Assembly (NCBI GenBank): GCA_035506195.1
Contig: DATJPV010000023.1
Span: 1,050 to 65,049 of the forward strand
DNA length: 64,000 bases
Source: Patescibacteria group bacterium
Lineage (GTDB): Bacteria; Omnitrophota; Gorgyraeia; Gygaellales; Profunditerraquicolaceae
Reading direction: 5' to 3'
A program made the position numbers and the translations under genes. Numbering within the stretch: position 1 is the stretch's first letter; every line of letters starts with the position of its first letter. The notes below the pieces were generated by a model. That model did not search any database. It saw only the letters and a program-made list of their open reading frames with translations, and was not told where the DNA came from. Positions 24,161-47,625 of the stretch are shown here, one piece after another.

Positions 24161-24161
24161 C

Positions 24162-24767: not shown

Positions 24768-24784
24768 GGGGCGCCCTCTCCGGT

Positions 24785-28632: not shown

Positions 28633-29102
28633 GAATCAAGTTTTGAAATGGCCTCAACAATTGCATCGGACGAAAATCCGCGGCGTACAAGGGAGGAAAA
28701 GATGCGCCTTTTGGCTTGCTGGGGATCGAGCCCCTTCAGTTTCCCGGATTTTTCCCGGACAAGTCTTTCGACGATCGCCTCTTCCGAATACTCTTCTTTG
28801 ACCCTGCCGATCTGGCGATCGATGATATCGCTATCGATGCCCTTCAGCCTTAATTCCACGCGCAATCTGCGCAGTCCCAACGGCTTTTTGATACGGGACG
28901 CGATCCAGGCGCGGGCGAACTCATCGTCATCGAGAAAGCCCTTTTCTTTCAGGAAAGAAACGACCTGTGCAATCGTCTGGCGGTCGAACTTCTTGGCCTC
29001 CAGGCGCCGGGATATCTCTGCTTCGCTGCGCATCCTGAATTTAAGCAAGAGGAAGGCGTAGCGTTTTGCCTTCTGGAGCGCGGGCGAATCCTGTTTATTC
29101 AC
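28629..29102 (-). CDS. recX: regulatory protein RecX
   Basis: 157 aa three-repeat helical protein (RYAFLLLKFRMRSEAEISRRL...DDDEFARAWIASR). Upstream of alaS as in many bacteria. Confidence 0.8.
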   Translation of the reverse strand: MNKQDSPALQKAKRYAFLLLKFRMRSEAEISRRLEAKKFDRQTIAQVVSFLKEKGFLDDDEFARAWIASRIKKPLGLRRLRVELRLKGIDSDIIDRQIGRVKEEYSEEAIVERLVREKSGKLKGLDPQQAKRRIFSSLVRRGFSSDAIVEAISKLDS

Positions 29103-30558
29103 CTGTTTTTACCACGCAGAAGCCGCGGTTGGTCTTAATCAGCACATCACCGCGCGCTTCCGAGGTCAACCGCGCGTAATCGCCGAGGTTGGCTACCGGC
29201 TGATTATTGATCTGGCGGATGATATCCCCGCTCATGAGCCCGGCATCGTCTGCAGGGCTGCCCGAGGCGACTTCCGAGATTACCACTCCGGAGGCATCCT
29301 CCAGGTTAAAATGCCTGGCTACATCGGGGGTGATCTCCTGCACCCGCAACCCCCGCCATACGCCTTCAGGCGCAGACGTCATTTTCTCTATATTCTGAGG
29401 CCGCTCTCCGATCTCGACGGAGATGGAAACTTCTTTTTTATTCCGGATGACCGTAACTGTCGTTTTCTTGCCGACGTCGGTTTTGCCCACGGCATTGAGC
29501 AATTCACGGACGCTGGCGATAGGTTGATTGGCAAGGCGGACGATCACATCTGCGTCCTTGATGCCGGCTTTCTGTGCCGGCCCGTTCTTGACTACGCCGG
29601 CGACCAAGGCTCCCTTTTTCTCGGTAAGCCCAAATTGCTTTGCCAAATCGTCATTGAGGTCCTGGACGGTCACCCCCAGCCAGCCATACAATATTTTCTT
29701 GCCTTCGATCAGGCGGGCAATGATCCTCTTGGCGGTATTGCTGGGAATGGCAAAACCGATGCCTTGATAGCCGCCGCTGGTAGAGAATATCGCCACGTTG
29801 ATCCCTACTATTTCTCCTTTAAGGTTCACCAGGGGCCCGCCGGAATTTCCGGGATTTATCGCCGCGTCAGTTTGAATGAGGTCCCCGTAATCCCGGTCAT
29901 TGGGCATGGCCTTGCCTAATGAACGGTGCAGCGCGCTGATCACGCCCGCCGTCACGGTAGGTTCGGGGTTCTGGAGCGCAAAACCGAAAGGATTACCGAT
30001 CGCCACTACCCACTGCCCGATCTTTGCGCTATCGGAATCCCCGAGGGCGGCCACGGGCAGGTTACGGGCATTGACCTTAACCACGGCCAGGTCGGAACGG
30101 GAATCCTGCCCCTTGATCTCCCCCTTGAACTCTCTGCCATCGGGCAGGGTTACGGTAATCTTATCCGCCCCGTCAACCACGTGCTCATTGGTAAGGATAT
30201 AACCTTCGGGGTCGATAATCACCCCCGAGCCAAGGCCTACCTGTTTATACTCCTGGTCGGGCATGTTACGGAAATAATCGCCGAAGAAACGACGCAGAAA
30301 TTCATCATCGCCAAAGGGGGATTGGGCGCCCGGGGGGACGTTGAAATAAAACCTCCTGCCTGCCGGGGCTTTATCGGTATGCTCCGTACTGATCGAAACC
30401 ACTGCCTTGCCTACGGTACGGGCTACTTCGATTACGCCGTTCTCTAAACTAGGCTGCTCCCCTTGCGATGGCGCCGGGGGCACCTGGCCCTGTGCTGACG
30501 AAAAGACGCTTAACCGCATGACCAAAACCAAAGCAAAAAATGCGATTTTTCTTTTCAT
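29095..30558 (-). CDS. htrA: periplasmic serine endoprotease DegP/HtrA family (trypsin domain plus two PDZ domains)
   Basis: 487 aa; signal peptide, catalytic-triad context (TNEHVV...[11 protein letters not shown]...GNSGGPLVN), two PDZ-like regions. Confidence 0.9.
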
Positions 30559-30574
30559 GGCTGTGCCTCCAACA

Positions 30575-31636
30575 CTATTTTTCCGCCTTCTCTTCTTTCT
30601 GGTCTATCTCAAGCGCGCCGGCGCTGATCTTCTTGCGGACTTCTTTCTCGATATCATCCTGAAGCTTGGGTTTTTCTTTAAGCAGCTTGATCGCTCCGTC
30701 CCTGCCCTGGCTGAGCTTTTCATTCTGAAAAGAAAGCCACGATCCGGATTTTTCCAGCACTCCCAGGCTAATCGCCGCATCGATAACGCATCCGGTTTTG
30801 GCGATCCCCTCGGCATGCAGGATCTCGAATTCTGCCTCTTTGAAAGGCGGGGCTATCTTGTTCTTGACGACCCTGGCCCGCACACGGTTGCCGATCACCA
30901 TCTCCCCGGACTTCAAGGTAGCGATCTTACGCAGGTCAAGCCTTACCGAAGCATAGAACTTGAGCGCCCGGCCGCCGGGCGTGGTTTCGGGAGAGCCGAA
31001 CATGACGCCGATCTTCTCTCTGATCTGATTAATAAAAATGACACAGGTTCGCGATTTACTGATCGCGCCGGTCAGCTTCCGGAGCGCCTGCGACATCAGC
31101 CTTGCCTGTAAGCCGACATGAGCATCCCCCATCTCTCCTTCGATCTCGGCGCGAGGCGTAAGCGCTGCCACCGAATCGATAACGACCATGTCTACGGCAT
31201 TGGAACGCACCAGCGTTTCGGCAATTTCCAGGGCCTGCTCGCCTGTGTCCGGCTGGGAGATCAAGAGCTCATCCAGATTGACCCCGATAATCTTGGCATA
31301 TGTCGAATCGAAGGCATGCTCTGCATCGATAAACGCAGCCACCCCTCCTTTTTTCTGGATCTCTCTGATAACCGTTAAAGTAAGCGTTGTCTTTCCTGAA
31401 GCCTCGGGACCAAAAACTTCGATAACCCTGCCCCTCGGCAGGCCTCCTATGCCTAAAGCCCAATCCAGCGTAAGGGCGCCGGTAGGGATGGCTTCGACAT
31501 CGGCCTTCACGTGGCTGCCCAACTTCATGATCGAGCCTTTCCCGAACTGCTTCTCGATCTGGGTAAGGGCCAGCTCCAGGGCCTTTCTGCGGTCAGAAAG
31601 ATCTTTTGTTTCCTCTTTTTTCTTTTCTATAACCAT
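30575..31636 (-). CDS. recA: recombinase RecA
   Basis: 353 aa; Walker [14 protein letters not shown]1/L2 loops, [14 protein letters not shown]. Confidence 0.96.
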
Positions 31637-31683
31637 TGCAACCTCCGATGTTGAACGCTGTTTTGTGTGTAATCGAGAAAATA

Positions 31684-31712
31684 ATTATAGCTTAGCCTGA
31701 TTTGGCTGTCAA
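31684..31712 (-). promoter_or_regulatory. consensus sigma70 promoter upstream of recA (TTGACA-17-TATAAT)
   Basis: Minus strand reads TTGACA-GCCAAATCAGGCTAAGC-TATAAT. A roughly 40-nt leader ends in GGAGGTTGCA-ATG. Confidence 0.55.
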
Positions 31713-31771
31713 ACAAAATCCTCCTTTCTACTACAATAGACGCAAAAAGGAGGAAAATCTAACTCTCTTAC

Positions 31772-32986
31772 CTATATAGAACCTATGATCGAGCCACCGG
31801 AAAGCGCGGCCAACTTAACCGGGATAAGCTGGTTTGCCAGGTTACGGTTGGCTTTAGCCAAGACCTTGAGGTAATTGCCGGTATGGCCCTCCCAGAAACC
31901 GCGCTTAGCGCAAGATCGCCCCTCAAAAAGCACCTGCACTGTCTTGCCCAAAAAACGGCTGCGATAACGCACCGAGCAATCATCGGCTACCTGATTGACG
32001 CGCTCGATGCGCCGCTGCATTTCTGACGGCTCCAGCAGCCGATACTGCCGGCGCGCAGCTTGCGTCCCGGGCCTTTGCGAAAAAGGAAACACGTGCACCT
32101 TCAACGGCATGCTTACCTTGACCGTTGCGAGGGTATGCTGAAAGCATGCCTGCGTCTCCGCGGGAAAACCCACCAGCACATCGGTAGTAATGGCGATATC
32201 CGGTACGCGCCTGCGGATCATGCGTATCAGTTGCAAAAAATCACCGGCAGTATAAGCGCGGTTCATTGCCTCCAGCACCTCATCATCTCCGCTTTGTAAA
32301 GGGATGTGCAGGTGCTTACATAGTTTTTTTGAGCTCTTTAAAAGCCGGATCAGGCCTTCGGAAACGTCATTTACTTCTATGGAGCTCAACCTGAGGCGCA
32401 GGATCCCGGGGACCTCTTCGAGCTTACGGATAAGCGCAACCAAATCCGTCCGGCCGGAAGCGTCTTTACCATAGGAGCCCAGGCAGATGCCCGTCAAGAC
32501 GATCTCCCGGAAACCGCTTGCGGCCAAGGCAGACGCCTCGGCGCATATCGCATGCGCAGGCCGGCTGCGGGATCGCCCCCTGACCAGAGGGACTTTGCAA
32601 TAAGAACAAAAATTATTGCAACCGTCTTGTATTTTCAAAAATGCGCGGGTCCTGCCGGCAAAGGTGGTAATGCCATCGGGGAAAAAGGCCTTACTAATGA
32701 TGCAACGGACGCCTTTGATGCGGGAAAGCGCGGATGCGTCTTTTTTAACCAGGCAGCCGGTAACCAGGACTCCTGCGCGCGGATTGCGGCGGATGCATTG
32801 GCGGATCACCGCCTTGGATTTGCGGTCCGCGGCGGAAGTCACGGTGCAGGTGTTGATTACACAAAAATCGGCGGGCCTGCCGTTGTCGATAACGCGAAAA
32901 CCCGCACGGATAAAACGCTCTCTAATACTTTGCGTATCATACTGGTTTGCTTTACAGCCTAAAGTGAAGAACTTAACCGTTTTCAT
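31772..32986 (-). CDS. MiaB/RimO-family radical SAM methylthiotransferase (MtaB-like)
   Basis: 404 aa. N-terminal MTTase domain with Cys triad (LGCKANQYD...NTCTVT...GCL), radical SAM CNNFCSYC, C-terminal TRAM-like region. Confidence 0.8.
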   Translation of the reverse strand: MKTVKFFTLGCKANQYDTQSIRERFIRAGFRVIDNGRPADFCVINTCTVTSAADRKSKAVIRQCIRRNPRAGVLVTGCLVKKDASALSRIKGVRCIISKAFFPDGITTFAGRTRAFLKIQDGCNNFCSYCKVPLVRGRSRSRPAHAICAEASALAASGFREIVLTGICLGSYGKDASGRTDLVALIRKLEEVPGILRLRLSSIEVNDVSEGLIRLLKSSKKLCKHLHIPLQSGDDEVLEAMNRAYTAGDFLQLIRMIRRRVPDIAITTDVLVGFPAETQACFQHTLATVKVSMPLKVHVFPFSQRPGTQAARRQYRLLEPSEMQRRIERVNQVADDCSVRYRSRFLGKTVQVLFEGRSCAKRGFWEGHTGNYLKVLAKANRNLANQLIPVKLAALSGGSIIGSI

Positions 32987-33707
32987 ATACAGTAATGCAG
33001 GCGGCCACGCTCAAGGCTGCGGTATCGACCCGCAACACCAGTTCTCCCAGGGAAATGCCGATGAACCCGCATTCGGCGGCGCGGGCAACCTCTTGCCGGC
33101 TGAAGTCGCCTTCCGGGCCGATACATACAATGATGCTGCGGTATCTCTGCGCGCTCAAGGCGCTTTTCAGAGAACGCCGGCTGCCGAAGAGCGAGCCGAT
33201 CAATTTAAGGTCATACTCGCCGGCCAACGCAAAAACTTTTTCCATATTCATGATCGGCTCCACAACCGGGACGGTGTTGCGCTGGCTTTGCTTTGCCGCT
33301 TCCAGCGCAATCTTTTGCCAGCGGGAAAGCCTCTGGAGCTTTTTGCGTTCATCGAGCCTAACCACAACGCGTTCGCTTTCCAGCGGTATGATACGGTCCA
33401 CGCCAAGCTGGGTGAGCTTATCTACGATTTCATCCATCTTGGCCTTTTTAGGGATAGCACAGGCAATAGCCAGGCTGTACGCCTTGGCCTTACGGTGCAG
33501 AAGCCTCTCTTTTATATCCAAGAGCACGGCTTTCTTGGAAATACTGCGAATACCGCAAAGATATTCATTGCGCTCTTCGTCGAACGCCACGATCGTATCT
33601 CCTGTCTCCAGATGCAGCACGTCCTGGATATGATGGATCTGCGCTGCGTCGTGTATGCTGATCTGAGCGGATGATATTTGTTTTGACGAAACTAAACACC
33701 GGTGCAT
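32973..33707 (-). CDS. rsmE: 16S rRNA (uracil1498-N3)-methyltransferase
   Basis: 244 aa; RsmE/SPOUT knot motifs (HHIQDVLHL, VCIGPEGDFS, LGELVLRVDTAA). Confidence 0.82.
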   Translation of the reverse strand: MHRCLVSSKQISSAQISIHDAAQIHHIQDVLHLETGDTIVAFDEERNEYLCGIRSISKKAVLLDIKERLLHRKAKAYSLAIACAIPKKAKMDEIVDKLTQLGVDRIIPLESERVVVRLDERKKLQRLSRWQKIALEAAKQSQRNTVPVVEPIMNMEKVFALAGEYDLKLIGSLFGSRRSLKSALSAQRYRSIIVCIGPEGDFSRQEVARAAECGFIGISLGELVLRVDTAALSVAACITVYENG

Positions 33708-33711
33708 TCTC

Positions 33712-34368
33712 TCACCTATACGCTTTCATTATCACCTGGATCCCTAGAACTGCGATCACCAAACCGCAGCTCGTTCGCAACAGCCGCACATAGATAGCCG
33801 GCCCCCTGCGCAGCCAGGCCGGGATACATCCTGCCAGCGCTACCAGTACGATAAGCACGGATACGCACGTCCCTGCACCGAACGCCAGACCGTAGCAGAA
33901 GGCCTGTGCCCATGTTTTCGATACCAACCCCACATACGAAAGCACGGCAAACAAGGGGGCGCAAGGGGATATCCCCAGGACCAACCCCAGTAAGAGAGCG
34001 CTGGGGTAACCCTTTTGCAGAAAATGAGCTTCGAACATGCGACAGACTGGCCAGGCCAAATCCTTCCCCAGCGCCATGAGTACCCCTATTACGGCAATGA
34101 ACGCGCCTCCGGCAATCGCCGCATATCTGGCGATGCTGCCGCAGGCTCCTTCGAACACAAAGCTACCCGCAAAGAATACGGCGATACTCAAGCCCGCATA
34201 TACCGCCATGCGGCCGGCGCAAAACTGGGCATAAAAAGCCAGGGCCCCGGTAACGTTCTTGCGGGTGCCGGCAACATACGATACCAGTATCGGCCCGCAA
34301 CTGGCCGCGCAGGGACCACAGCCTAACAACAAACCGGTAACGAAAAGATTCGCAATAAGGGGGAACAC
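33712..34368 (-). CDS. Cys-rich polytopic membrane protein, CcdA/DsbD-transmembrane-region-like (tentative)
   Basis: 218 aa, about 6 TM. Cys motifs inside the first TM segments (LLGCGPCAASCGPIL; LGISPCAPLF) resemble thiol-disulfide transporter/CcdA-like proteins. Family assignment from memory only. Confidence 0.4.
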   Translation of the reverse strand: MFPLIANLFVTGLLLGCGPCAASCGPILVSYVAGTRKNVTGALAFYAQFCAGRMAVYAGLSIAVFFAGSFVFEGACGSIARYAAIAGGAFIAVIGVLMALGKDLAWPVCRMFEAHFLQKGYPSALLLGLVLGISPCAPLFAVLSYVGLVSKTWAQAFCYGLAFGAGTCVSVLIVLVALAGCIPAWLRRGPAIYVRLLRTSCGLVIAVLGIQVIMKAYR

Positions 34369-34370
34369 CG

Positions 34371-35888
34371 CTAGGGCTCTTTTTCGGAGAAGACCGTAGC
34401 CGTAAACACATAAAGCTCGGTAGCTTTTTCTTTCCAGGCGTCGGGGGAAAGCCCTGCCTTATGGCTGCAGAGCGCAGAGAGGAATTCCTCCTTTGACCAG
34501 CCGGTTTCTGCGGCCACCTGGGGCAGGAACACGCCGCTACGGTATCCGCGCTTTACCAATACGCCGTGGGTCCCGAGCTTTATTTCATCGACGGAAGAAA
34601 CCCGCTGGAGAGGAGAAAGTACCGAAATCTCTATCTCGGCATCCTTAAGCTCTGCCGGCTGAAGGGGCGGGAAACGCGGATCCCCCACTGCCGACTCGAC
34701 GGCCATATCCCTTATCGTCAGGTATAACGGCTGATTGCCGACGAGATTACCGATGCAGCCGCGCAGCTGGCCATGCTCGTGCAAGGTTACAAAGGCGCCG
34801 TGCGCCTTGGACAGGACCGGATCGTCTTCAACAAGCTCCATGCGCTTGCCGGTTTTTAAATATGCTTCTATCGAGGCGCGGGCGATCTCCAGAAGCCTTT
34901 TTTTCTGGTTAGTGTTGAGCATCTGCGCTCCCCTTTCCTGTGGTTGGTCGATGGCACAGCTGGAGTAACCCACGGTCCAGATACCCTTGATCTTTCTTCC
35001 GGTCACCACCGCGGAATTCGTGTAGTGCAGGACCTCAAGCGTTTCGTGCCCCAGCGACTTGGCCAGATCAAGCACGGTGACAACCGGAAAACCTCCGCAT
35101 AGCTGGGCTTTTTCCTCGCGCAAGCCATAGTATAATCCCAATACGTCCATATTCCTTAAATACACCAGGGTCTGCCTGTCCGCGGCCTCCGCGGCCTCAT
35201 AGTCGTAACCGTGATACATATCGCTGGAAGCGACCACCAGCACATCTTCGCGCGTGCCTATCGCCTCCTTCAAGAGACTGGCAAGCTTACGGCAGACGGC
35301 AAGAGTACAGTCCCCCATAACTATCGGCACGACCTTGAATTCGGAAAGCGACCGCTGAAGAAATGGCAGCTGTACCTCCACGGAATGCTCCTGCTCAAAT
35401 GCCGCCGGCAGAAAGGTAATCGCGCCGTCCTGATTAAGGAGCCTCTGGGCAAATTGCGCATCGACTTCGACATCGCCCAGGGGCGTCCGGAATGCCCCCT
35501 GGGGATATACAGACACCGCATCAAACCCAAAACGATGGCTTGGGCCGATCACCACGACTGTCCGGTACGGCTTGCCCTTGATCAGCTTGTACGCGTATGC
35601 AGCGGTCTGGCCGGAATATCCGTATCCGGCATGCGGACAGACCAACGCAATGACCGGGCCGGACATCGGTTTAGGCTGCGCTGCCGCAAGGAACCCGTCG
35701 ACCATCGAACGCAGCTGCTGGGGGTTATCAGGATAGAACGCGCCGGCGACGTTCGGCTCTTTGATATCGGACGCAGCGCAATTCCCCTGCGCCAAGGAAC
35801 CAAAGAGCATAGCGACAGTTACGATGATTACTTTAATTCCAGACGCCTGCGATCTTTTCTCCGCAAAATTTACATTTTCCATCGACAA
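34371..35888 (-). CDS. AmmeMemoRadiSam system fusion protein: MEMO1-like (protein B) N-terminal domain plus AMMECR1 (protein A) C-terminal domain, with N-terminal signal peptide
   Basis: 505 aa. The Memo region carries VAGAFYPDNP...CPHAGYGYSG...SSDMYHG. The AMMECR1 region carries GAFVTLHEHGQLRGCIGN. The start is TTG 35888 (or ATG 35882) after GGAGGTGA. The first 38 aa MSMENVNFAEKRSQASGIK-VIIVTVAMLFGSLA-QGN look like a signal peptide. It overlaps the rSAM gene end by 56 nt. Confidence 0.85.
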   Translation of the reverse strand: MSMENVNFAEKRSQASGIKVIIVTVAMLFGSLAQGNCAASDIKEPNVAGAFYPDNPQQLRSMVDGFLAAAQPKPMSGPVIALVCPHAGYGYSGQTAAYAYKLIKGKPYRTVVVIGPSHRFGFDAVSVYPQGAFRTPLGDVEVDAQFAQRLLNQDGAITFLPAAFEQEHSVEVQLPFLQRSLSEFKVVPIVMGDCTLAVCRKLASLLKEAIGTREDVLVVASSDMYHGYDYEAAEAADRQTLVYLRNMDVLGLYYGLREEKAQLCGGFPVVTVLDLAKSLGHETLEVLHYTNSAVVTGRKIKGIWTVGYSSCAIDQPQERGAQMLNTNQKKRLLEIARASIEAYLKTGKRMELVEDDPVLSKAHGAFVTLHEHGQLRGCIGNLVGNQPLYLTIRDMAVESAVGDPRFPPLQPAELKDAEIEISVLSPLQRVSSVDEIKLGTHGVLVKRGYRSGVFLPQVAAETGWSKEEFLSALCSHKAGLSPDAWKEKATELYVFTATVFSEKEP

Positions 35889-36936
35889 TATTCACCTCCA
35901 GCACAATATACCCCGAACGCCTGATCAAGACCTTGTTGCAGGCAGGACAATACGTCTGCTCCGCCGGATGAGGGGATATATTTCCTATATACACGTACTT
36001 GAGCCCGCAGTCAAGCGCAATATCCCTGGCCTTTTCCAGGGCGCTTACCGGCGTCGGGTTCAACGCAGCCAGTTTATACAAAGGGAAAAAGCGGGAAAAG
36101 TGCAACGGCGTATCCGCGCCCAGGTTATCCTTGATCCAGCGGCACATGGCGATGAGTGTCTGACTGTCATCGTTAAACCCCGGGACGATCAGGTTGGTAA
36201 CCTCCAGGTGCACCCCGGCTTTTTTTATGGCTTTTAACGTCTCCAGGACCGGCCCAAGCGTAGCGTCGGAAAACCGGGCGTAGTAATCATCGCTGAATCC
36301 CTTCAGGTCGATGTTCGCCGCATCCAGATACGGAAGGAGCTGCTCCAGCGGCTCTTTGTTGATATAACCGGCGGAGTGCATCATGTTGCGTATCCCCTGC
36401 TTCTTGGCCAGCTTCGCAGTCTCCAGCATATATTCATAAAATATGGTCGGCTCAGTGTAGGTATAGGCGATGGTCGGGCTGCCCGCCTCCTTGACCCTGC
36501 GCACCAGTTCTTCGGGCGATACGTCCAGAGAACTGACCTCCTCGGGCTTGCGCTGGGAGATCTCCCAGTTTTGGCAAAATTTACAGCGCAGGTTGCACCC
36601 CGCCGTGGCGATGGAATAGGCGGCGGTGCCGGGCAGAAAATGAAACAGGGGCTTTTTTTCGATCGGATCGATGTGCACGGCGACGGGCCGGGAGTATACA
36701 AGCGTATACAGCGTGCCGTTACGGTTCTCCCTTACACCGCAGAAACCGCGCCTGCCTTCGGTAATCAGGCAGTTGCGCGGACACAAATGGCACTGGACGG
36801 CCCTGTCTTTAAGTTTCTCATAAAAAAGGGCTTCTTTGAGGGTCGTTGCGGCGGTTAACCGAGGAAGCGCAATGCAGGCCCCCAAGAGGACCCAAAGGAA
36901 GGCAAAAAGGCAAGCCGCTCTTATGGCATGCTTCAT
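35833..36936 (-). CDS. AmmeMemoRadiSam system radical SAM enzyme
   Basis: 367 aa. Conserved EALFYEKL...VQCHLCPRNC and the radical SAM cluster motif CNLRCKFCQNW. N-terminal hydrophobic segment AACLFAFLWVLLGACIAL. The ATG lies 15 nt after the tRNA-Ala 3' end with no SD. Confidence 0.85.
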   Translation of the reverse strand: MKHAIRAACLFAFLWVLLGACIALPRLTAATTLKEALFYEKLKDRAVQCHLCPRNCLITEGRRGFCGVRENRNGTLYTLVYSRPVAVHIDPIEKKPLFHFLPGTAAYSIATAGCNLRCKFCQNWEISQRKPEEVSSLDVSPEELVRRVKEAGSPTIAYTYTEPTIFYEYMLETAKLAKKQGIRNMMHSAGYINKEPLEQLLPYLDAANIDLKGFSDDYYARFSDATLGPVLETLKAIKKAGVHLEVTNLIVPGFNDDSQTLIAMCRWIKDNLGADTPLHFSRFFPLYKLAALNPTPVSALEKARDIALDCGLKYVYIGNISPHPAEQTYCPACNKVLIRRSGYIVLEVNIVDGKCKFCGEKIAGVWN

Positions 36937-36951
36937 GGGCAGGGATAAAAG

Positions 36952-37024
36952 TGGAGCAGATGGGATTCGAACCCACGGCCTTCGCGATGCGAACGCGACG
37001 CTCTCCCAGCTGAGCTACTGCCCC
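36952..37024 (-). tRNA. trnA: tRNA-Ala (anticodon CGC)
   Basis: Reverse complement GGGGCAGTAGCTCAGCTGGGAGAGCGTCGCGTTCGCATCGCGAAGGCCGTGGGTTCGAATCCCATCTGCTCCA. G3:U70 Ala identity pair, anticodon loop TT-CGC-AT, no encoded CCA. Confidence 0.9.
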
Positions 37025-37090
37025 AAAAGGTTGTTGTCTAGCTGTATCTTTTGGGACGTCCCCGTAGGGGGCTGCCCGAAAATATTATCC

Positions 37091-37119
37091 ACTTTACCAC
37101 ACTTTTCTGATTTTCGCAA
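37091..37119 (-). promoter_or_regulatory. possible promoter for tRNA-Ala / rSAM transcript (TTGCGA-17-TGGTAAAGT, extended -10)
   Basis: Minus strand reads TTGCGA-AAATCAGAAAAGTGTGG-TAAAGT with TG at -15/-14. A GC-rich palindrome GGGACGTCCCCGTAGGGGGCTGCCC (37048-37072) lies in the predicted leader. Confidence 0.25.
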
Positions 37120-37133
37120 ATCAAAAGGCGGGG

Positions 37134-37760
37134 TTAGTTTGCCGACACCGATGGCATGCGAATGCGCGAAAAAAGCCTGATGCTCGGATTTTTGGGGCTA
37201 CCGCACGCATCAGGGTTACCGTCCGGATCCCAGCAGGCGGTTACCTGTATTTCCAGCGTATCCGCAGACGGATTCAAAACATATGTCGGCTGAGCCGGAT
37301 CGTTGCCAAAATCAGGGCTGATCTTTTTTTGAGTAATCACCTCATATACGCCCGGGGCGGTAGTAAGGTCCGGATAATACCAGACTTCGTAATTCGGCGC
37401 GGACCGGTAACGATAGGCGATCTGCCTGTCGGCAGGAGAGGCATCCCTGCGGCCATTACCGTTATAATCGATCCATACGGTCATCGTCGTGTCTCCGCCG
37501 ATGGTGGTCATTGCTATCGGAGGGTTGATCGTATCCCCTATCGCTCCGCCCCTGTCGCTTGAACCTACGATACTGCGGGTTATGTGCCCTACCAAAAATG
37601 AAGCCTCCTGCTGCACCTGGGCGCGCCGCATCGAAATGAGCAGATGACCGTAGCAAAAGCTATCGATCATCGCAAAAGCGCCGACAATGATCGACATCAG
37701 AACCAGACTTATGATAAGCTCGATAAGCGTAAGGGATTTAAGGTGTCGGAGGGGGCTCAT
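37134..37760 (-). CDS. minor pilin / pseudopilin with prepilin-type N-terminal helix
   Basis: 208 aa. N-terminus HLKS-LTLIELIISLVLMSIIVGAF (E at +5 of the putative mature end), followed by a variable domain. Confidence 0.65.
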   Translation of the reverse strand: MSPLRHLKSLTLIELIISLVLMSIIVGAFAMIDSFCYGHLLISMRRAQVQQEASFLVGHITRSIVGSSDRGGAIGDTINPPIAMTTIGGDTTMTVWIDYNGNGRRDASPADRQIAYRYRSAPNYEVWYYPDLTTAPGVYEVITQKKISPDFGNDPAQPTYVLNPSADTLEIQVTACWDPDGNPDACGSPKNPSIRLFSRIRMPSVSAN

Positions 37761-38103
37761 TCCACGTAATGGTAACTTTTACTTTTTTCAAGTGGGAATT
37801 CCCGACCCAGGCGCTCACATCAGCCGTACTGTATGCCGGGGTATAGGTAATGGGGGGCACCTGCAGGGCGCCCGGGCATCCGGTACCTGCGGTGAGGCAA
37901 TTACTGCCCCAGGTAGCCTGATTGACGTCTGCCTGCAAAGGGTCCAGAAAATACCTTCCCAGCTCTCCGCCGGCGCTACGGCTGCGGCTATGGAGCAGGC
38001 TGCGCCTGCCGGTTATGAAAACGCTGGACATCCCGGCGAGCACCAGCGCAAGCAATATTGCCGCTACCAATACCTCAATCAAGCTCACGGCCCTTTTACT
38101 CAT
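37738..38103 (-). CDS. minor pilin / pseudopilin
   Basis: 121 aa. N-terminus MSKRA-VSLIEVLVAAILLALVLAG (E+5). 23-nt overlap with the downstream pilin gene. Confidence 0.6.
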   Translation of the reverse strand: MSKRAVSLIEVLVAAILLALVLAGMSSVFITGRRSLLHSRSRSAGGELGRYFLDPLQADVNQATWGSNCLTAGTGCPGALQVPPITYTPAYSTADVSAWVGNSHLKKVKVTITWNEPPPTP

Positions 38104-38124
38104 ACAGAAACTTAAAAGAAGCCC

Positions 38125-38523
38125 TTACCATGACCCGTCGCAGGCATACGGCTCTTCCGTGGAAGCGCTTTGATTCGTGCACCAGACATGGTTGGTTTTC
38201 GTAACGCGCTGCGCCTTACCGATAAAGGCGTTAGGGGAAGTAGTAACGTTATCGACTTTATAATTCCATCGCGATCCCGCCTGCGGCAACATAAGGTTAA
38301 GCAGGGAGTTGACCGTAGTGTTGTCGGCGGCGGCGACATAAGCCCCGATTTCCATTTTGTAGATTCTTTCAGCCGACTGGATAAGCTTCAAATTGGCGAT
38401 GGCCTCTTTATCCAAGACAGCTTCTCGGTGCGCGGTATATTGGGCTACGCCGATAGTAGCCAAGACACCGATAATGACAAGCACTACCATTGTTTCCATT
38501 AAGGTGAAGCCCTTAATCTTCAT
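38125..38523 (-). CDS. GspG/PilA-like pseudopilin (type IVa prepilin leader MKIKG|FTLMET)
   Basis: 132 aa; G-1/F+1/E+5 signature, TLMETMVVLVIIGVLATIGV helix. The start codon directly abuts the T-tract of the upstream terminator, with no SD. Confidence 0.75.
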   Translation of the reverse strand: MKIKGFTLMETMVVLVIIGVLATIGVAQYTAHREAVLDKEAIANLKLIQSAERIYKMEIGAYVAAADNTTVNSLLNLMLPQAGSRWNYKVDNVTTSPNAFIGKAQRVTKTNHVWCTNQSASTEEPYACDGSW

Positions 38524-38524
38524 A

Positions 38525-38575
38525 TAAAAAAATGACAGTCCTTATTGCGTGCCTACGCACGCAATAAGGACTGTC
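38525..38575 (-). terminator. rho-independent terminator after the major pilin gene
   Basis: Perfect 19-bp stem GACAGTCCTTATTGCGTGC / GCACGCAATAAGGACTGTC with a 4-nt loop, followed on the minus strand by TTTTTTT. Confidence 0.8.
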
Positions 38576-38595
38576 TCCGAGCTTGCACAAAACAA

Positions 38596-39024
38596 TTAAT
38601 AACCGCCAGATCCTCCCCACGTATCAACACCCGTGCTCAGGACCGATGTCAACTGGACGTCTCCAGCAGTTGATGCCTGCGGGAGTTTTCCACCAGCTGT
38701 ACAACGTGTTGCTACGCCGGTAACGTTTGTTGCAGCCGAAGTTACCGAATAGCTGAACCAATGCGAGGCGCGGCAAGCGCTGGGAATCTGATCGGCATTG
38801 GTACCGATATGGGCAGTAGAAGCCCCGGTTCCAAAACTGGCGGTGCTACCGAATTCCAAATAATATCCCGCCGATAGCTTCCTGATGTCGCCCAAAATAG
38901 CCTTGGCTTCTGCACCACGAGATTTCTCGATCATTCTGGCATATTGCGTGAAACCGAGGATCGCCAACACGCCCAAAATGATAATAACTACGATCAACTC
39001 GAGCAACGTAAAACCTTTTTTCAT
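38596..39024 (-). CDS. pilA: major type IVa pilin (PilA-like)
   Basis: The track ORF is N-extended. ATG 39024 follows AAAAGGAGGAGACAAC. MKKG|FTLLELIVVIIILGVLAILGF prepilin signature. 142 aa. Flanked by its own consensus promoter and a strong terminator. Confidence 0.85.
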   Translation of the reverse strand: MKKGFTLLELIVVIIILGVLAILGFTQYARMIEKSRGAEAKAILGDIRKLSAGYYLEFGSTASFGTGASTAHIGTNADQIPSACRASHWFSYSVTSAATNVTGVATRCTAGGKLPQASTAGDVQLTSVLSTGVDTWGGSGGY

Positions 39025-39167
39025 GTTGTCTCCTCCTTTTTTATTATTAAACCTGTGATTCATTTGATTCATTTTTTGTTTCTCGGAAAATTTTGATTTC
39101 GGTTATAGATGTGCTGCCTGTATCTATAGAGCCTGCCTTTACCACCCCCTTTCATGCTTCTGTTCAA

Positions 39168-39196
39168 ACTATATCACAAAATACCAATGCTGTCAA
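39168..39196 (-). promoter_or_regulatory. consensus sigma70 promoter with extended -10 for the major pilin (TTGACA-17-TGATATAGT)
   Basis: Minus strand reads TTGACA-GCATTGGTATTTTGTGA-TATAGT. It begins about 20 nt after the pilC stop. The predicted leader is about 135 nt. Confidence 0.55.
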
Positions 39197-39214
39197 CAAG
39201 TTAGCAAAGAATTA

Positions 39215-40456
39215 CTATGACCCTCCGATCTTGGAAATCTGGAAGATAGGCAAGAACATCCCAACGACCATAACGCCGATAACCAGACCCATGAAAATAA
39301 GCATGAGCGGTTCGAACATCGCGGTAAACCTCGTCAAGAACGTCTCGACGTACTCTTGATAAAACGTATTTACTTTTTTGAACATCTGCGATAGCTCGCC
39401 GATCTCTTCTCCGATCGAAACCATCTGGACGAACATCGGCTCGAAAAAACCGCTTTTCTCCAGCGGCTGGCTCAGGGGTTTGCCTTCCCGCACGTCGTCT
39501 TTTATTTTGCGGATGATGTCTCCGACGATCAGATTACCGACGCTGCGTTCGGCGATCTCAAGAGAATAAAGGATAGGCACGCCGCTTTCAACCAGCGTAG
39601 ACATCTCTGATGAGAACCTTTCCAGTATGAGCGCATGAAAAAATTCACCCAACACCGGCATGTCGAACTTAAAACGCTCCCACTGACGCCGCCCGTCGCC
39701 GCTGCGCGTGTATCTCCGGAAAAGAAAGAACAGGACCACAGAGCCTCCTATGCCGACCAACAAATAGTGCCTGAGAAAACTACTCACCGAAAGAAGTATC
39801 TTGGTGAGCGCAGGCAGCTCGACGTTGAACCCTTTGAATAATTCGGCAAACGTAGGAATAATTTTGACCGATAAAAACAAAAGCGCCCCTAAACCGGCAA
39901 CGGTAAGTATGACAGGATAGACTAACGCGGAAACCACCTTCCGCCTAAAGGCTTCCATCCTCTCCAGGTAATTTGCGAGGCGGCTCAATATGATTGCCAA
40001 GTTTCCGGAAGCCTCACCGCTCTCTACGAGGTTAACCCATAATTCGTTAAACACCTTAGGGTGTTTTGCCATCGTTTCATGAAGGCTGATACCGGCCTCC
40101 ATGTTGCGCTGTAGGTCTCTCATTACCACCTGGAGCTTGCGGCTGGAAACCTGCTGCGAAATAATATCGAGGCTCTTTAAGATCGTCACGCCCGCGCCGA
40201 GCAATGTCGCCAATTGGCGGCAAAAAAGCGTCAGGTCCTCATCCTTGATCCCTGAATGCTGCGGCCTGAATTTCTCCTTCTGCTGCCCGGGCTCTTTAAA
40301 GGCCGGCGCGCCTTCTTTGGGCTCCGAAAGAATGCTGACGACTATCAGATCCTTTGCCTGAAGCCTGCCGACGACCTCTTCCTGCGATGAGGCTTCTTCT
40401 ACGCCGGTTATTTTCTTACCGGTGACATCCCTGGCGGTATAAAAGAATCTTGGCAT
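39215..40456 (-). CDS. pilC: type IV pilus inner-membrane platform protein PilC/GspF family
   Basis: 413 aa. Two T2SSF repeats, each with 3 TM. N-terminus MPRFFYTARDVTGKKITG. Confidence 0.9.
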   Translation of the reverse strand: MPRFFYTARDVTGKKITGVEEASSQEEVVGRLQAKDLIVVSILSEPKEGAPAFKEPGQQKEKFRPQHSGIKDEDLTLFCRQLATLLGAGVTILKSLDIISQQVSSRKLQVVMRDLQRNMEAGISLHETMAKHPKVFNELWVNLVESGEASGNLAIILSRLANYLERMEAFRRKVVSALVYPVILTVAGLGALLFLSVKIIPTFAELFKGFNVELPALTKILLSVSSFLRHYLLVGIGGSVVLFFLFRRYTRSGDGRRQWERFKFDMPVLGEFFHALILERFSSEMSTLVESGVPILYSLEIAERSVGNLIVGDIIRKIKDDVREGKPLSQPLEKSGFFEPMFVQMVSIGEEIGELSQMFKKVNTFYQEYVETFLTRFTAMFEPLMLIFMGLVIGVMVVGMFLPIFQISKIGGS

Positions 40457-42183
40457 TAATCGGACCCCAACGTAACCGAGAGGGCCTCTTCCAATGAGGT
40501 GAGGCCGTCTTCGACCTTTTTAATTGCCGATTCATACAGTGTTTGCATCCCGTTGTCCCGGGCAACATCCCTGACCCGCTGGAAAGAAGCCCTTTGGTTG
40601 ATCAGGTCCCGTATGGTGTCATTGACTATCATGACCTCGGAGATACAGGCCCTGCCTTTATACCCGAGTTGATTGCACTTGGCGCACCCTTTCGAGCGGT
40701 ATATTAATTCGGTCTTGAGTTTTATGCTCTTGAGCTGTTCGGTAGTAGGCTCATAGGCTTCTTTGCAGTCCGGGCAAAGTTTGCGCAGTAATCTCTGGGC
40801 CACGACCAACAGCAGCGAAGGGGCAATCAGATACGACTCGATACCGATGTCCATAAGGCGCGTTACCGCAGAAGCGGCGTCATTGGTATGCAGAGTGCTT
40901 AATACCAAATGCCCGGTTAACGCCGAACGGATACAGATCTGTGCGGTCTCTAAGTCCCTGACCTCCCCCACCAGCATGATATCCGGGTCCTGGCGTAAAA
41001 AACTTCGCAGGGCGCTGGCAAAAGTCAGGCCTATCTCCGGCTTGACTTGAACCTGGTTGATGCCATCCAGCTTATATTCAACGGGGTCTTCGATGGTGAT
41101 GATGTTTTTCGTGGGGCTCTTTATTTCATTAAGGATCGCATAAAGGGTAGTGGTCTTGCCGCTTCCCGTAGGGCCGGTCAGAAAGATCAGCCCGTAGGGC
41201 ATATTTATCTCCCGGCGTATCTTATCGAGCTGCTTGGAATCAAAACCCATCTGCCCTAGATCCAGGACCACGGAACTGCGGTCCAGTATTCTTAAGACCG
41301 CCTTTTCTCCGTAGATCGTCGGGACGGTAGAAACTCTCAAGTCAATCGGCCGGTCCTCCACCTTGACGAGGAACGCCCCGTCCTGCGGCAGGCGTTTTTC
41401 GGCGATATCCAGCTTACTGAGGATCTTGATACGGGAAACGATCGGTAAATGCAGGTGCCGGGCAGGAGGAGGTATTTCGTACAGCTTGCCATCGATGCGG
41501 TAACGCAGGGATATCTTGTCTTTGAAGGGTTCGATATGTATGTCGGACGCCCTTTCATCGATCGCCTGCCTGATGATCAGATCCACCAATTTTACGACCG
41601 GCGCCTCTTCGGCGCGCGCGATGAGCTTGTCCAGGCTCAGCTCTTGGTCCGGCGGCTCGCCGCTATCCTCTATTTCCTGCGCCGAAGGCAGATCATAGGA
41701 GGCCTCGACCGCCTGTTCCAGCATCTTTGACTTACCGTAAAATTCTTCAATTGCCCGGGTCAGGTCGGATTTAGTAGCGATTACCGGGTTGATCTCGCAG
41801 CCGGTAAGTTTTTTCAAGTTGTCGATAAGGATGAGGTCGAGCGGATCGGCCATGGCCACCGTCAGCGACCGGAGCGTGCGCGATAGGGGAAGCACCAGGT
41901 TCTTGAGGGCAAAATCCTGCGGGATAAAATGCTCCAGGTCCTGATCCGTTGCCGGGCGCAGCATACCGGTGCCCAGAGAAAAATAAGGTATGCCCAGCTG
42001 CTTTCCGAGCACCGCCACGAGCTTGTCTTCCTTGACGATGCCCAGTTTTATGAGAAGCTCTCCCAGGCGGCCGCCCTCCTGCCTCTGGACGCTGATCGCC
42101 TTCTCAAGCTGCGCCTCGGAGACGATGCCTTCCTTTACTAAAAGCTCGCCTAGTTTTAAATATTTCTCTTTGTTATGCGGCAT
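40456..42183 (-). CDS. pilB: type IV pilus assembly ATPase PilB/GspE family
   Basis: 575 aa. N-terminal GSPII_E_N-like domain, Walker A LTGPTGSGKTTTLYA, tetracysteine CPDC...CAKC motif. Confidence 0.9.
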   Translation of the reverse strand: MPHNKEKYLKLGELLVKEGIVSEAQLEKAISVQRQEGGRLGELLIKLGIVKEDKLVAVLGKQLGIPYFSLGTGMLRPATDQDLEHFIPQDFALKNLVLPLSRTLRSLTVAMADPLDLILIDNLKKLTGCEINPVIATKSDLTRAIEEFYGKSKMLEQAVEASYDLPSAQEIEDSGEPPDQELSLDKLIARAEEAPVVKLVDLIIRQAIDERASDIHIEPFKDKISLRYRIDGKLYEIPPPARHLHLPIVSRIKILSKLDIAEKRLPQDGAFLVKVEDRPIDLRVSTVPTIYGEKAVLRILDRSSVVLDLGQMGFDSKQLDKIRREINMPYGLIFLTGPTGSGKTTTLYAILNEIKSPTKNIITIEDPVEYKLDGINQVQVKPEIGLTFASALRSFLRQDPDIMLVGEVRDLETAQICIRSALTGHLVLSTLHTNDAASAVTRLMDIGIESYLIAPSLLLVVAQRLLRKLCPDCKEAYEPTTEQLKSIKLKTELIYRSKGCAKCNQLGYKGRACISEVMIVNDTIRDLINQRASFQRVRDVARDNGMQTLYESAIKKVEDGLTSLEEALSVTLGSD

Positions 42184-42196
42184 GTGTCCTTAGGGA

Positions 42197-43744
42197 TTAC
42201 TGCCACTTTTCGATATTATCCAGGCTCGAATTTATAAGCGACCGGCGGTCGCCCCGTGCCCCCGTGCCCTGCTCTCTTTCGGGAAGCGCAATCTCCCCTG
42301 CCTTGACAAGCTCCATGTTGGAATCCTTGATGATGTGGGGCGTGATAAACACCAGAAGTTCCCTATCCAAATCGATAGACTGATTCTTGTGCCGGAATAA
42401 TGCGCCCATGATGGGGATATCCCCCAGGAAAGGCACTTTTTTACTGACTATCTCCTTATCCGTATGGATCAAGCCTCCGACCACCACCGTGTCTCCGTCC
42501 TTGACCTTAACGATGGATTTGCTGGCCCTGACCTCGGCATCTGCCTGCGTGGCGGCCAAGGGGCTGACGGAAGTAACGCTCGACTTGGGGTTGATCACCA
42601 TGGTGATCTCGCCGGTTTCCGGGTTGACCTGGGGAGTGACTCTTAAATAAATACCCACCCCTTCGGGGGTAAGCTTAAGGTCTGTCGACCGTATATATTC
42701 GGTAGCGGTCGATTGGCCGGCGCTCGTAGAGTTGGTAGTCTCCTTCTTGCCCACCACCTCGTCTCGGGTGATGGAGATCTCCGCGGTTTCGTTGTTCAAA
42801 GTCAACAGCTTCGGCCGGGCCAAATATTTCACGTCGTTCTGCGTATGCAGAAGGTCCATGACTATCTGGTATGATGCGCTCGTGCCGTCTAGCTTAGATG
42901 TGTTAAGGCTTATGGATCCGGCCCCGCTTGTCGTGCTGCCGCCGGTGCCGGTTCCGGTTGAGCTGTCGAAATTACTCCATTTTCCGAAAGGAAACGGGAA
43001 CCGCGTAGGGGCGGTGGCACCGGTCAATACCATCGTAAACGGCGACTGGCTGTATTCAAACCCCATCTTATCAACCACGTTCTTGGAGACATCCAGGATC
43101 TCGACTTCAATGAGTACCTGAGAAACGGGGACATCCAATAAAGCAATGGTCTTCTCGATCAAAGGCATGCGGCTGGGTACCTCGGTAACTACCAGGCTGT
43201 TCGTGCGGTAATCCTCGATCACCGAGCCCTGAGCAGAAAGAAGTTTCTGGATGGTATTGGTAAGGCAGGCGGTATCTTTTTCTTTGTTGGCGGCGCCGGC
43301 ATTCATGCCCGTCACGCTGACCTGCGACATTTCCTGCCTGACTGCGGATGTCACCACCGAAGCATGCTTCAGAGGGAACACCTTGGTGACCGTGTCTGCC
43401 TGAGGCTTACCCCAGTCCTTGACTACGATGATATTTGATTCCTCATACAAGTCATAGGAAAGGTTATTGGCTTTAAAGAGCTTATCTACCACCTCCTTGA
43501 GCGGCACATTATCCAGGAAAAGGGTGATCTTGCGGTCCTGGACCGCTTCGGAAGCGATGAAATTAAAGCCCGACTGAACGGAAAGTATCTTAAGCACATC
43601 CTTCAGGCTGGCGTTCTGAAAATCCATGGACACGTTTATCGCGGACACGTCGGAGAACGCGTCTACCGCCGCCTCCAGCCGCGGAAACGCTATCATCGTA
43701 AAAAGAGCCGCTGCTATTGCCACGCTCCTAATGTTCTTTCTCAT
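42197..43744 (-). CDS. pilQ: secretin (PilQ/GspD family)
   Basis: 515 aa. Signal peptide, N-domains, and a C-terminal secretin domain (VVVGGLIHTDKEIVSKKVPFLGDIPIMGALFRHKN...LLVFITPHII). Confidence 0.88.
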   Translation of the reverse strand: MRKNIRSVAIAAALFTMIAFPRLEAAVDAFSDVSAINVSMDFQNASLKDVLKILSVQSGFNFIASEAVQDRKITLFLDNVPLKEVVDKLFKANNLSYDLYEESNIIVVKDWGKPQADTVTKVFPLKHASVVTSAVRQEMSQVSVTGMNAGAANKEKDTACLTNTIQKLLSAQGSVIEDYRTNSLVVTEVPSRMPLIEKTIALLDVPVSQVLIEVEILDVSKNVVDKMGFEYSQSPFTMVLTGATAPTRFPFPFGKWSNFDSSTGTGTGGSTTSGAGSISLNTSKLDGTSASYQIVMDLLHTQNDVKYLARPKLLTLNNETAEISITRDEVVGKKETTNSTSAGQSTATEYIRSTDLKLTPEGVGIYLRVTPQVNPETGEITMVINPKSSVTSVSPLAATQADAEVRASKSIVKVKDGDTVVVGGLIHTDKEIVSKKVPFLGDIPIMGALFRHKNQSIDLDRELLVFITPHIIKDSNMELVKAGEIALPEREQGTGARGDRRSLINSSLDNIEKWQ

Positions 43745-44791: not shown

Positions 44792-44800
44792 GCGTACCCC

Positions 44801-46560: not shown

Positions 46561-46599
46561 GAAGCTTTACCTTTCTTTACGTAAAACACAACCGTGTTA

Positions 46600-46667: not shown

Positions 46668-46742
46668 TAAATTTCGTTATTATAACTAATTGCAACTATA
46701 GATGTTAGATAGAGGCTTTTAAGGAAGGGGAAGGTTTAAATA

Positions 46743-47111: not shown

Positions 47112-47114
47112 ATG

Positions 47115-47621: not shown

Positions 47622-47625
47622 ACGA

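Follow-up and report, generated by a model that had tools for sequence, protein, structure and literature searches.

The widespread AmmeMemoRadiSam system, in which an AMMECR1-like protein A and a MEMO1-like protein B accompany a radical S-adenosylmethionine (SAM) enzyme (rSAM), is presumed to be cytoplasmic, and the copy that lies in the 64,000-nt stretch of contig DATJPV010000023.1 analysed here (the window) raises the question of where in the cell this system works. Conservation of AMMECR1 and MEMO1 extends from archaea to humans, and both have links to human disease; the three-gene system of bacteria offers the main access to their biochemistry, which to our knowledge is not known. In the window, both the rSAM and a protein that combines Memo and AMMECR1 start with hydrophobic leaders. 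As judged from sequence comparison, the system most likely works outside the cytoplasm, here as well as in relatives from other phyla.

The window encodes an AmmeMemoRadiSam system with fused Memo and AMMECR1 domains

All features of the system lie on the minus strand, and coordinates are those of the window.

35833..36936, minus strand: AmmeMemoRadiSam rSAM enzyme, 367 aa, ATG start (TIGR04337)
36850..36936, minus strand: leader of the rSAM, aa 1-29 (n-region MKHAIR; core A7-L24; P25; L27-T28-A29↓A30, with the arrow marking the predicted cleavage site)
34371..35888, minus strand: Memo (protein B) and AMMECR1 (protein A) fusion, one open reading frame (ORF), 505 aa from TTG
35772..35888, minus strand: leader of the fusion, aa 1-39 (K11, R12, K19; h-region V20-L32; c-region N-C-A-A↓S)
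34953..35762, minus strand: Memo (MEMO1-like/LigB-superfamily) domain, aa 43-312 (TIGR04336, PF01875)
34389..34898, minus strand: AMMECR1 domain, aa 331-500, with LRGC378IG (TIGR04335, PF01871)
35892..35899, minus strand: Shine-Dalgarno (SD) sequence GGAGGTGA of the fusion, inside the rSAM coding region (sequence and SD scan)

The gene order along the minus strand is tRNA-Ala(CGC), the TIGR04337 rSAM, the overlapping Memo-AMMECR1 fusion and a gene for a DsbD_2-type membrane protein. The components of the system are encoded by adjacent, overlapping genes, a togetherness that is kept in at least 30 loci. The rSAM and fusion genes overlap by 56 nt, which places fusion codons 1-18 over the 3' end of the rSAM gene, and the GTG start of the DsbD_2 gene lies 2 nt past the fusion stop. 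In NCBIfam the rSAM matched TIGR04337 with 384.5 bits (cutoff 220) over aa 38-366; the Memo domain reached 258.6 bits with TIGR04336 (cutoff 26) and 210 bits with Pfam PF01875, and the AMMECR1 domain 184.8 bits with TIGR04335 (cutoff 99) and 194 bits with Pfam PF01871. As TIGR04337, TIGR04336 and TIGR04335 are all above their cutoffs, the cluster is an AmmeMemoRadiSam system. An earlier note, made from the sequence alone, had described such a system, and every feature it described was found where it had been placed on the minus strand; its view that MEMO1-like and AMMECR1 domains share one polypeptide, with the motifs CPHAGYGYSG and LRGCIG, agrees with the profile matches. The two domains were fused in every examined locus in which they are adjacent.

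The rSAM contains the Cys motifs CX2CX3C..C (aa 49-66), CX3CX2C (aa 114-121; C114-x3-C118-x2-C121) and CX2C...CX2C (aa 330-358), and its mature part has 13 Cys. The canonical system consists of the same three families, and the window proteins score well above the cutoffs with the CX3CX2C motif, the Memo His/Cys region and LRGCIG intact. Canonical members are leaderless, and their A and B proteins are usually separate, whereas in the window A and B are fused behind a predicted general secretory (Sec) signal peptide, the rSAM has a leader of its own and a DsbD_2 gene is attached. The three-gene system was already known bioinformatically; the predicted exported form is what is new here, and no published description of it was found.

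Both proteins carry predicted signal sequences

The rSAM leader shows the n/h/c architecture of a signal sequence, with an h-region of about 18 residues, a helix breaker and residues that follow the -3/-1 rule. Among close homologues it is kept as a feature in 115 of the 118 that could be anchored, with a median length of 33 aa. Their n-regions are basic (median K+R 2, D+E 0), the core has a Kyte-Doolittle (KD) value, KD12, of 2.94, and the c-region favours Pro at -5 (70/118), L or I at -3 (82/118) and Ala at -1 (77/118), which gives a cleavage-type site x-A↓(Q/E). The 15 residues past the core are net neutral in the homologues; since the n-region is basic, an N-in/C-out orientation is favoured. 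A twin-arginine motif is not present in the window leader, and RR occurs in 1% of some 115 close homologues. The window leader contains the lipobox-like sequence LLGAC21, and a PS51257-like pattern was found in 49% of the homologues. Because of the lacking twin-arginine motif and the occurrence of the lipobox in only 49% of the homologues, we read the leader as a probable Sec-type signal peptide or N-in signal anchor.

The leader of the fusion follows the n/h/c pattern of Sec type I signal peptides, with C37-A38-A39↓S40 around the predicted cleavage site. It was present in all 116 fusion homologues, highly variable in length and sequence, and the common ending of the leaders is C-F-A↓Q-(D/E)-(I/V)-K-x-P-N-V-A-G, in which position -1 is Ala in 96/116 and position -3 is C, S, G or A. 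The earlier assignment of a cleavable signal peptide is supported, but not its cleavage site SLA↓QG: homology favours cleavage after residue 39 (N-C-A-A↓S-D-I-K-E-P), which aligns with the homologue consensus C-F-A↓Q-D-I-K-Q-P-N-V-A-G. From its sequence features the fusion leader is predicted to be a cleavable Sec (type I) signal peptide. The beginning of the fusion, MENVNFAEK, looks conserved because its codons overlap the conserved rSAM C-terminus in another frame. Of the two possible starts, TTG and the alternative ATG at 35882 (503 aa; the choice of NCBI), the former lies 7 nt and the latter 13 nt behind GGAGGTGA, in line with the good spacing claimed before.

The leaders appear to be additions to the protein families, as the profiles begin only after them (rSAM from residue 38, fusion from residue 43), solved structures start at the domain and many family members are leaderless. 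Alignments with the AMMECR1 structures PH0010 (1vaj) and MM0484 (1zq7) and the MEMO1 structures 3bcz and 7kq8 begin at residues 2-13 of the structures, those with 3bcz and 7kq8 at residues 4-5. The rSAM family comprised 1741 matches at E<=1e-30, and among the 150 best 50%-identity representatives, which were surveyed for leaders, at least 63 start right at the core. Leader identity was 0.31-0.39 for the rSAM and 0.22-0.26 for the fusion, compared to 0.71-0.76 and 0.68-0.73 in the mature parts; this difference between leader (0.22-0.39 overall) and mature sequence (0.68-0.76) is the behaviour of signal peptides. Alignment with orthologues, as the earlier note had proposed, showed that both N-terminal extensions are kept as features in about 115 homologues each. 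No true start downstream that would remove the leaders was apparent: after codon 1 the rSAM reading frame reaches the conserved block without a further ATG or GTG, the sole alternative being a TTG at codon 18, just as had been stated. Taken together, these features strongly suggest that the leaders of both proteins are real signal sequences.

Relatives in other phyla have twin-arginine-type leaders

Using the rSAM core as query, 80 genomic loci were gathered. About 40 of these, mostly from Omnitrophota, encode rSAMs with Sec-type leaders. Another 31, from Thermodesulfobacteriota and other 'delta' lineages together with the Omnitrophota loci L027 and L028, encode rSAMs with tripartite leaders of the twin-arginine translocation (Tat) type, with (S/T)RRxF(L/I)(K/R), a less hydrophobic core (KD 1.3-1.9) and a terminal A-x-A. 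These proteins are TIGR04337 members (353-369 bits), and the same type of leader occurs in at least 20 further rSAM representatives. The assignment to Tat is based on recurrence of the motif and not on a hidden Markov model (HMM), and should be read as a motif-based prediction. Tat-type members are present in loci labelled Desulfobacca acetoxidans, which would provide cultured entry points to the exported system.

Also outside the main group, the Memo-AMMECR1 protein adjoining the rSAM is a single ORF with a hydrophobic leader, as seen in Syntrophaceae (L030), in Desulfobacterales (L064) and in the loci L067 and L072. Leaders of these partners are of the Sec or lipobox type, with clear lipoboxes in L067 and L072. 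Export therefore appears to be a property of a cross-phylum clade and is not peculiar to Omnitrophota. The window itself stems from a metagenome-assembled genome of Omnitrophota. Its close homologues and syntenic loci are essentially all from this phylum, and the name 'Patescibacteria group bacterium' given to its contig by NCBI is probably wrong or outdated.

In many Thermodesulfobacteriota loci a second radical-SAM-like gene, with 23-27% identity to the window rSAM core, adjoins the Tat-type TIGR04337 gene (L042, 3682-4734, minus strand; L033, L041, L058, L044, L060, L061, L069, L073, L076, L079). That of L042 starts with the canonical Tat motif MKWTRRDFIKYSF, and Thermodesulfobacteriota thus seem to hold pairs of radical SAM enzymes with predicted Tat signals. 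A protein of 700-734 aa, polytopic and in its middle region similar to spermidine synthase, is encoded convergently to the system in L027 (7586-9790, minus strand) and L034 (5990-8101, minus strand); its gene takes the place of DsbD_2 in L027 and L028, the loci with the Tat-like leader, and lies between an rSAM paralogue and DsbD_2 in L034. In the leader-bearing fusion of L030, from a metagenome-assembled genome (MAG) of Syntrophaceae, an in-frame TAG (3320-3322) breaks the Memo domain (LPFLQ*VLG). Selenocysteine was rejected as an explanation, the stop being TAG and not TGA; an assembly error or a pseudogene is probable.

Natural fusions tie the radical SAM domain to electron-transfer modules

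Among the closest rSAM representatives several natural fusions were found, all of them TIGR04337 members with the following domain orders (TM, transmembrane segment):

P0247, P0256: single N-terminal TM, FMN_bind, rSAM; no further TM
P0241, P0244: FMN_bind, polytopic Fer4_5 (NosR/NapH-like), one TM, rSAM
P0242, P0253: DsbD_2, rSAM
P0264: DsbD_2, FMN_bind, Fer4_5, rSAM
P0249: leader, rSAM, Memo, AMMECR1 (triple fusion)

All five FMN_bind domains in these proteins contain the flavinylation motif D..(S/T)GA(S/T), with D..SGAT in P0247 and P0256. FMN_bind domains are extracytosolic electron-transfer modules (PMC8238504), and as no TM separates FMN_bind and rSAM in P0247 and P0256, the rSAM domain of these proteins would also lie outside. 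In P0241 and P0244, a single TM follows the last CX3CP motif of the NosR/NapH-like module and precedes the rSAM. CcdA has an N-out/C-out topology. In the six-TM DsbD_2 module of P0242, the odd loops together contain 11 K+R and the even loops 0, and from this bias we infer the same orientation, which would place the fused rSAM outside. The fusions therefore suggest an extracytoplasmic location of the rSAM domain and connect it with modules that transfer electrons across the membrane. The placement of AMMECR1/MEMO and rSAM in the periplasm or at the membrane, which had been put forward as unexpected for these families, gains support from leader conservation, the Tat-bearing relatives and the FMN_bind-rSAM fusions. 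In two further proteins, P0248 (919 aa) and P0255 (681 aa), a TIGR04337-type rSAM stands behind beta-propeller (Reg_prop/PorZ-like) or CBM_11 carbohydrate-binding modules, which may hint at a glycan or cell-surface substrate.

A DsbD_2 membrane protein accompanies the Sec-type system

33712..34368, minus strand: DsbD_2/CcdA-like six-TM protein, 218 aa, GTG start (Pfam PF13386)

The product of the gene directly downstream of the fusion matched PF13386 with 54.9 bits (cutoff 24.9), and certain homologues also match PF02683 (DsbD). It has the motifs G-x-G-P-C20-x3-C24-G-P in TM1 and P-C136-x-P-L in TM4, and the Cys are invariant in 35/35 homologues from the loci and 11/11 from the database. These matches bear out the proposal of a CcdA/DsbD-like membrane protein with Cys motifs at this position. 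The suggested co-conservation with the system was likewise observed: of the 31 closest Omnitrophota loci, about 27 have it directly beside the fusion gene and, more tellingly, DsbD_2 is fused to the rSAM elsewhere. DsbD_2 was present in 33/40 Sec-type loci (several of the seven others being truncated contigs) versus 0/31 Tat-type loci, a contrast that is largely confounded with phylum. It is likewise found close to a leader-bearing rSAM paralogue whose gene context differs and lacks Memo and AMMECR1 (L032, L034, L035, L038, L040, L046, L050, L057). Based on the fusions, the occurrence near the paralogous rSAM and the co-occurrence pattern, a functional link between DsbD_2 and the system is likely. 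Adjacency alone was rejected as proof of such a link, as the neighbouring RsmE and MiaB-like genes are equally syntenic.

A thioredoxin-like gene was not seen beside DsbD_2 in the cluster. An identity as TauE/SafE exporter had no profile support, the Pfam scan giving DsbD_2 only and no TauE. Among NCBIfam models the protein matched only the ArsG efflux permease, far below threshold (35.5 versus 200 bits), and a phmmer search against the Protein Data Bank (PDB) gave nothing relevant but one spurious CGxCAASC match to a hydrogenase subunit. L022 has two tandem rSAM cores (4694-5680 and 6291-7280), which are 67% and 66% identical to the window protein, ahead of just one Memo-AMMECR1-DsbD_2 set.

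An extracytoplasmic model and its alternatives

We consider it probable, though well short of certain, that the cluster represents an extracytoplasmic variant of the AmmeMemoRadiSam system. According to this model, the genes would probably be transcribed together with the upstream tRNA-Ala. The Memo-AMMECR1 fusion would be exported via Sec, with its signal peptide cut about five residues before the Memo domain. The rSAM would be inserted or exported by its own Sec-type leader, which may be cleaved or kept as an N-in anchor, and either way the catalytic domain would face the periplasm at the membrane surface. The invariant membrane-embedded Cys of DsbD_2 might then hand reducing equivalents from the cytoplasm to the exported Cys-rich enzymes, that is, the mature rSAM with its 13 Cys and AMMECR1 with a conserved, catalytic-looking Cys. 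Sec exports unfolded proteins and Tat exports folded proteins with cofactors bound, and CcdA keeps the thiols of apocytochrome c reduced; by analogy, a supply of reductant would be needed specifically for Sec-exported, unfolded and cofactor-free proteins. Relatives with Tat leaders would be exported folded and loaded with iron-sulphur (Fe-S) clusters, without DsbD_2, and the absence of DsbD_2 from their loci fits the model since such export would need no thiol reduction. Other lineages appear to meet the electron supply with FMN_bind/NosR-like modules. Rather than a nucleic acid of the cytoplasm, the substrate would be a membrane or envelope molecule, namely a lipid or isoprenoid, a glycan or an exported protein.

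A cross-phylum exported clade wired to DsbD_2, FMN_bind and NosR/NapH-like modules would constrain the substrate to molecules available at the membrane or in the periplasm; it would make lipids or isoprenoids, glycans or proteins likelier targets than the bases of RNA or DNA, and would point to radical SAM chemistry outside the cytoplasm, an unexpected place for such an enzyme. The more specific proposal, in which the rSAM works outside the cytoplasm after Sec export in an unfolded state and acquires Fe-S clusters and SAM in the periplasm, with DsbD_2 as a dedicated maturation or redox partner, is tentative and in our view rather doubtful. If true, it would imply an unrecognised extracytoplasmic route of Fe-S loading along with a supply of SAM, and an ancient AMMECR1/MEMO/rSAM trio that acts on membrane or envelope molecules rather than nucleic acids.

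Several points weigh against the extracytoplasmic model. Its main weakness is the delivery of an Fe-S cluster and SAM to a Sec-exported enzyme in the periplasm, and we know of no precedent for Sec export of an Fe-S enzyme. With about 18 residues the hydrophobic core of the rSAM leader is long, and it is better conserved than that of a typical cleaved signal peptide. With respect to the relatives, the Pfam TAT_signal model gave sub-threshold matches only (best 17 versus 22.7 bits) on the eight Tat-type leaders tested, seven from TIGR04337 relatives and one from the adjacent second rSAM of L042. Within Omnitrophota, the contrast between Sec-type loci with DsbD_2 and Tat-type loci without it comes down to L027 and L028 only. 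Further, the whole neighbourhood is syntenic in this phylum, with RsmE in 28/31 and the MiaB-like gene in 26/31 loci, the DsbD_2 protein goes under the name 'sulfite exporter TauE/SafE family protein' at NCBI, and a Foldseek comparison of its AlphaFold2 (AF2) model, which is of moderate quality (pLDDT 69), with the PDB gave no match at E<=1e-3, be it to CcdA or another protein, the weak matches being NqrE and RnfA/E.

These points lend themselves to different explanations. The conserved block from the pilin genes and the tRNA over rSAM, fusion and DsbD_2 to RsmE and the MiaB-like gene, along with the TauE/SafE name, the weak ArsG match and the missing structural match to CcdA, could mean that the DsbD_2 gene and the tRNA are bystanders of phylum-wide synteny and that DsbD_2 is an unrelated exporter of small molecules or anions. 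This is rather improbable given that three independent representatives join DsbD_2 to a TIGR04337 rSAM, that it occurs near the paralogous leader-bearing rSAM where Memo and AMMECR1 are missing, and that it has the invariant PC-motif Cys in TM1 and TM4 known from CcdA/DsbD and no Pfam match to TauE. The difficulty of a Sec-exported Fe-S/SAM enzyme would disappear if only the Memo-AMMECR1 fusion were exported and the rSAM helix were an uncleaved anchor that holds the domain at the cytoplasmic face (N-out/C-in, viperin-like), where SAM, reductant and Fe-S assembly are on hand; in that case the work on a lipid substrate would be split between the two faces, with modification on one and processing on the opposite one. 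The unusually conserved core, a Cys at -13 in 77/118 homologues and the higher identity of the rSAM leader (0.39 versus 0.22 for the fusion leader) are in line with this. However, the charge bias favours N-in, the c-region is of a conserved cleavage type, Pro(-5)/(L/I)(-3)/Ala(-1), family members in other phyla have Tat leaders, and both the FMN_bind fusions without intervening TM and the fusions of the rSAM to the C-terminus of DsbD_2 put the domain outside, which makes also this arrangement an unlikely one.

Within the exported model, the rSAM might alternatively be a lipoprotein, anchored via C21 (LLGAC) to the outer face of the inner membrane or to the outer membrane. The window sequence fits the PROSITE-type lipobox, the Cys lies at a fixed spacing of 13 residues before KEALFY in 77/118 homologues, and two Memo-AMMECR1 partners outside Omnitrophota (L067, L072) have clear lipoboxes. 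As the pattern occurs in 49% of the homologues only, many of them having I, V, L or T at -1, and the residues after the Cys, F-Y-L-P, are hydrophobic and atypical of a mature lipoprotein N-terminus, we regard this variant as quite unlikely. It is still harder to explain the leaders as annotation artefacts of cytoplasmic proteins with true starts downstream. The rSAM start without SD, 15 nt past the tRNA, and the varied fusion starts chosen by gene callers might be taken as signs of this, but the stretch from the rSAM ATG to the conserved block offers no other ATG or GTG in frame, open leaders with the same features recur in about 115 homologues and in dozens of loci, SD-less starts are common in the window, and the fusion has a strong SD at the correct spacing; we give this explanation very little credence.

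Comparison to known systems

With regard to CcdA/DsbD proteins (e.g., CcdA-ResA in system II cytochrome c maturation), the window DsbD_2 protein likewise has six TMs with Pro-Cys motifs in TM1 and TM4, and its gene stands beside genes for predicted Sec-exported, Cys-rich clients; the shared logic would be that thiols of exported apo-proteins are kept reduced. It differs in belonging to PF13386 and not PF02683, in an extra CX3C Cys and in having no thioredoxin-like partner visible in the cluster. The closest characterised relatives of the rSAM are the pyruvate formate-lyase (PFL) activating enzyme and other glycyl-radical activases (PflA 3c8f, E=2e-9; TIGR02493, E=1e-16), which are cytoplasmic. 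The window rSAM departs from these by additional Cys motifs at its N- and C-terminal ends and by the absence of a glycyl-radical enzyme as partner, and it scores far below the cutoffs of their families. The TIGR04337 sister clade shares tripartite twin-arginine leaders with Tat-exported Fe-S and cofactor proteins such as hydrogenase small subunits and Rieske proteins, which would fit the export of a folded enzyme already holding its Fe-S clusters. In contrast, the window rSAM and its roughly 115 Omnitrophota homologues lack RR and have cores of the Sec/SRP type (KD about 2.9 versus 1.3-1.9).

Burroughs et al. 2019 (J Biol Chem 294:10211) are said to have linked the Memo-AMMECR1-rSAM system to the modification of nucleotide bases or isoprenoids. 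In the literature searched, AmmeMemoRadiSam was named in gene lists only, and nothing was found on exported AMMECR1 or an exported form of the system, although Burroughs et al. 2019 may have noted secreted versions; the same searches returned nothing on periplasmic or Tat radical SAM enzymes, nor on Tat in Omnitrophota. Flavinylated systems (NosR/NapH-like, FMN_bind and ApbE; PMC8238504) are related through the rSAM's relatives, which are fused to FMN_bind and Fer4_5 CX3CP modules, and both connect an extracytosolic enzyme in the same modular manner to electron pools in the cytoplasm or the membrane. The window cluster differs from them in having DsbD_2 only and no FMN_bind or NapH-like gene, and radical SAM, Memo and AMMECR1 are not mentioned by Meheust et al. 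2021 (PMC8238504).

tRNA-Ala and neighbouring genes

36951..37024, minus strand: tRNA-Ala (anticodon CGC), directly upstream of the rSAM gene (ARAGORN and sequence)
36937..36950, minus strand: tRNA-rSAM spacer cttttatccctgccc, counted from the discriminator base, with no SD and no room for a promoter

The tRNA-Ala has the G3:U70 pair, and CCA is not encoded. It is separated from the rSAM ATG by 14-15 nt without SD, and ARAGORN and the sequence thus corroborate the earlier observation of a tRNA about 15 nt ahead of an SD-less start. In 19 Omnitrophota loci this tRNA precedes the rSAM start on the same strand by no more than 300 nt; the gaps span 5-241 nt, the shortest being 5-6 nt, and in none of these 19 loci does an SD precede the rSAM. 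Since no promoter- or terminator-like site lies between them, tRNA-Ala and rSAM are likely co-transcribed. A scan of 33500-37400 for sigma-70 promoters and terminators gave no minus-strand site, also not upstream of the tRNA, and is uninformative for this organism. The SD-less rSAM start was ruled out as something special, as an SD core is missing from 20 of the 47 first starts of the window. Co-transcription is hence no specific evidence for an mRNA made by tRNA processing, given that SD-less starts are common and that the tRNA belongs to a phylum-wide conserved gene order which includes pilin genes, RsmE and the MiaB-like gene. In L003, L014, L037 and L009, the longer tRNA-rSAM spacers contain GGCCTCC or CCTCC shortly before the start, which is anti-SD-like and not SD-like.

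The strand bias of the window is extreme: over positions 1..64000, the minus strand holds 45 of the 47 non-overlapping ORFs with 150 aa or more, and intergenic gaps are very short. Because of this bias and packing, tight spacing is weak evidence for an operon here.

Directly 3' of DsbD_2, at 31772..33707 on the minus strand, lie genes for an RsmE (16S rRNA methyltransferase-like) protein and a MiaB/RimO-like radical SAM methylthiotransferase. A 4-nt gap follows DsbD_2 and the two genes overlap by 14 nt, in an order that is conserved across Omnitrophota. Their presence may be plain synteny, yet neighbours with a role in RNA modification are notable given the published guesses on the system. Upstream of the tRNA, at 37134..40456 on the minus strand, is a run of type IV pilin-like genes, with GFTL(I/M)E N-termini, and a gene for a GspF/PilC-like platform protein, and this run is syntenic in about 20 of the 31 related loci.

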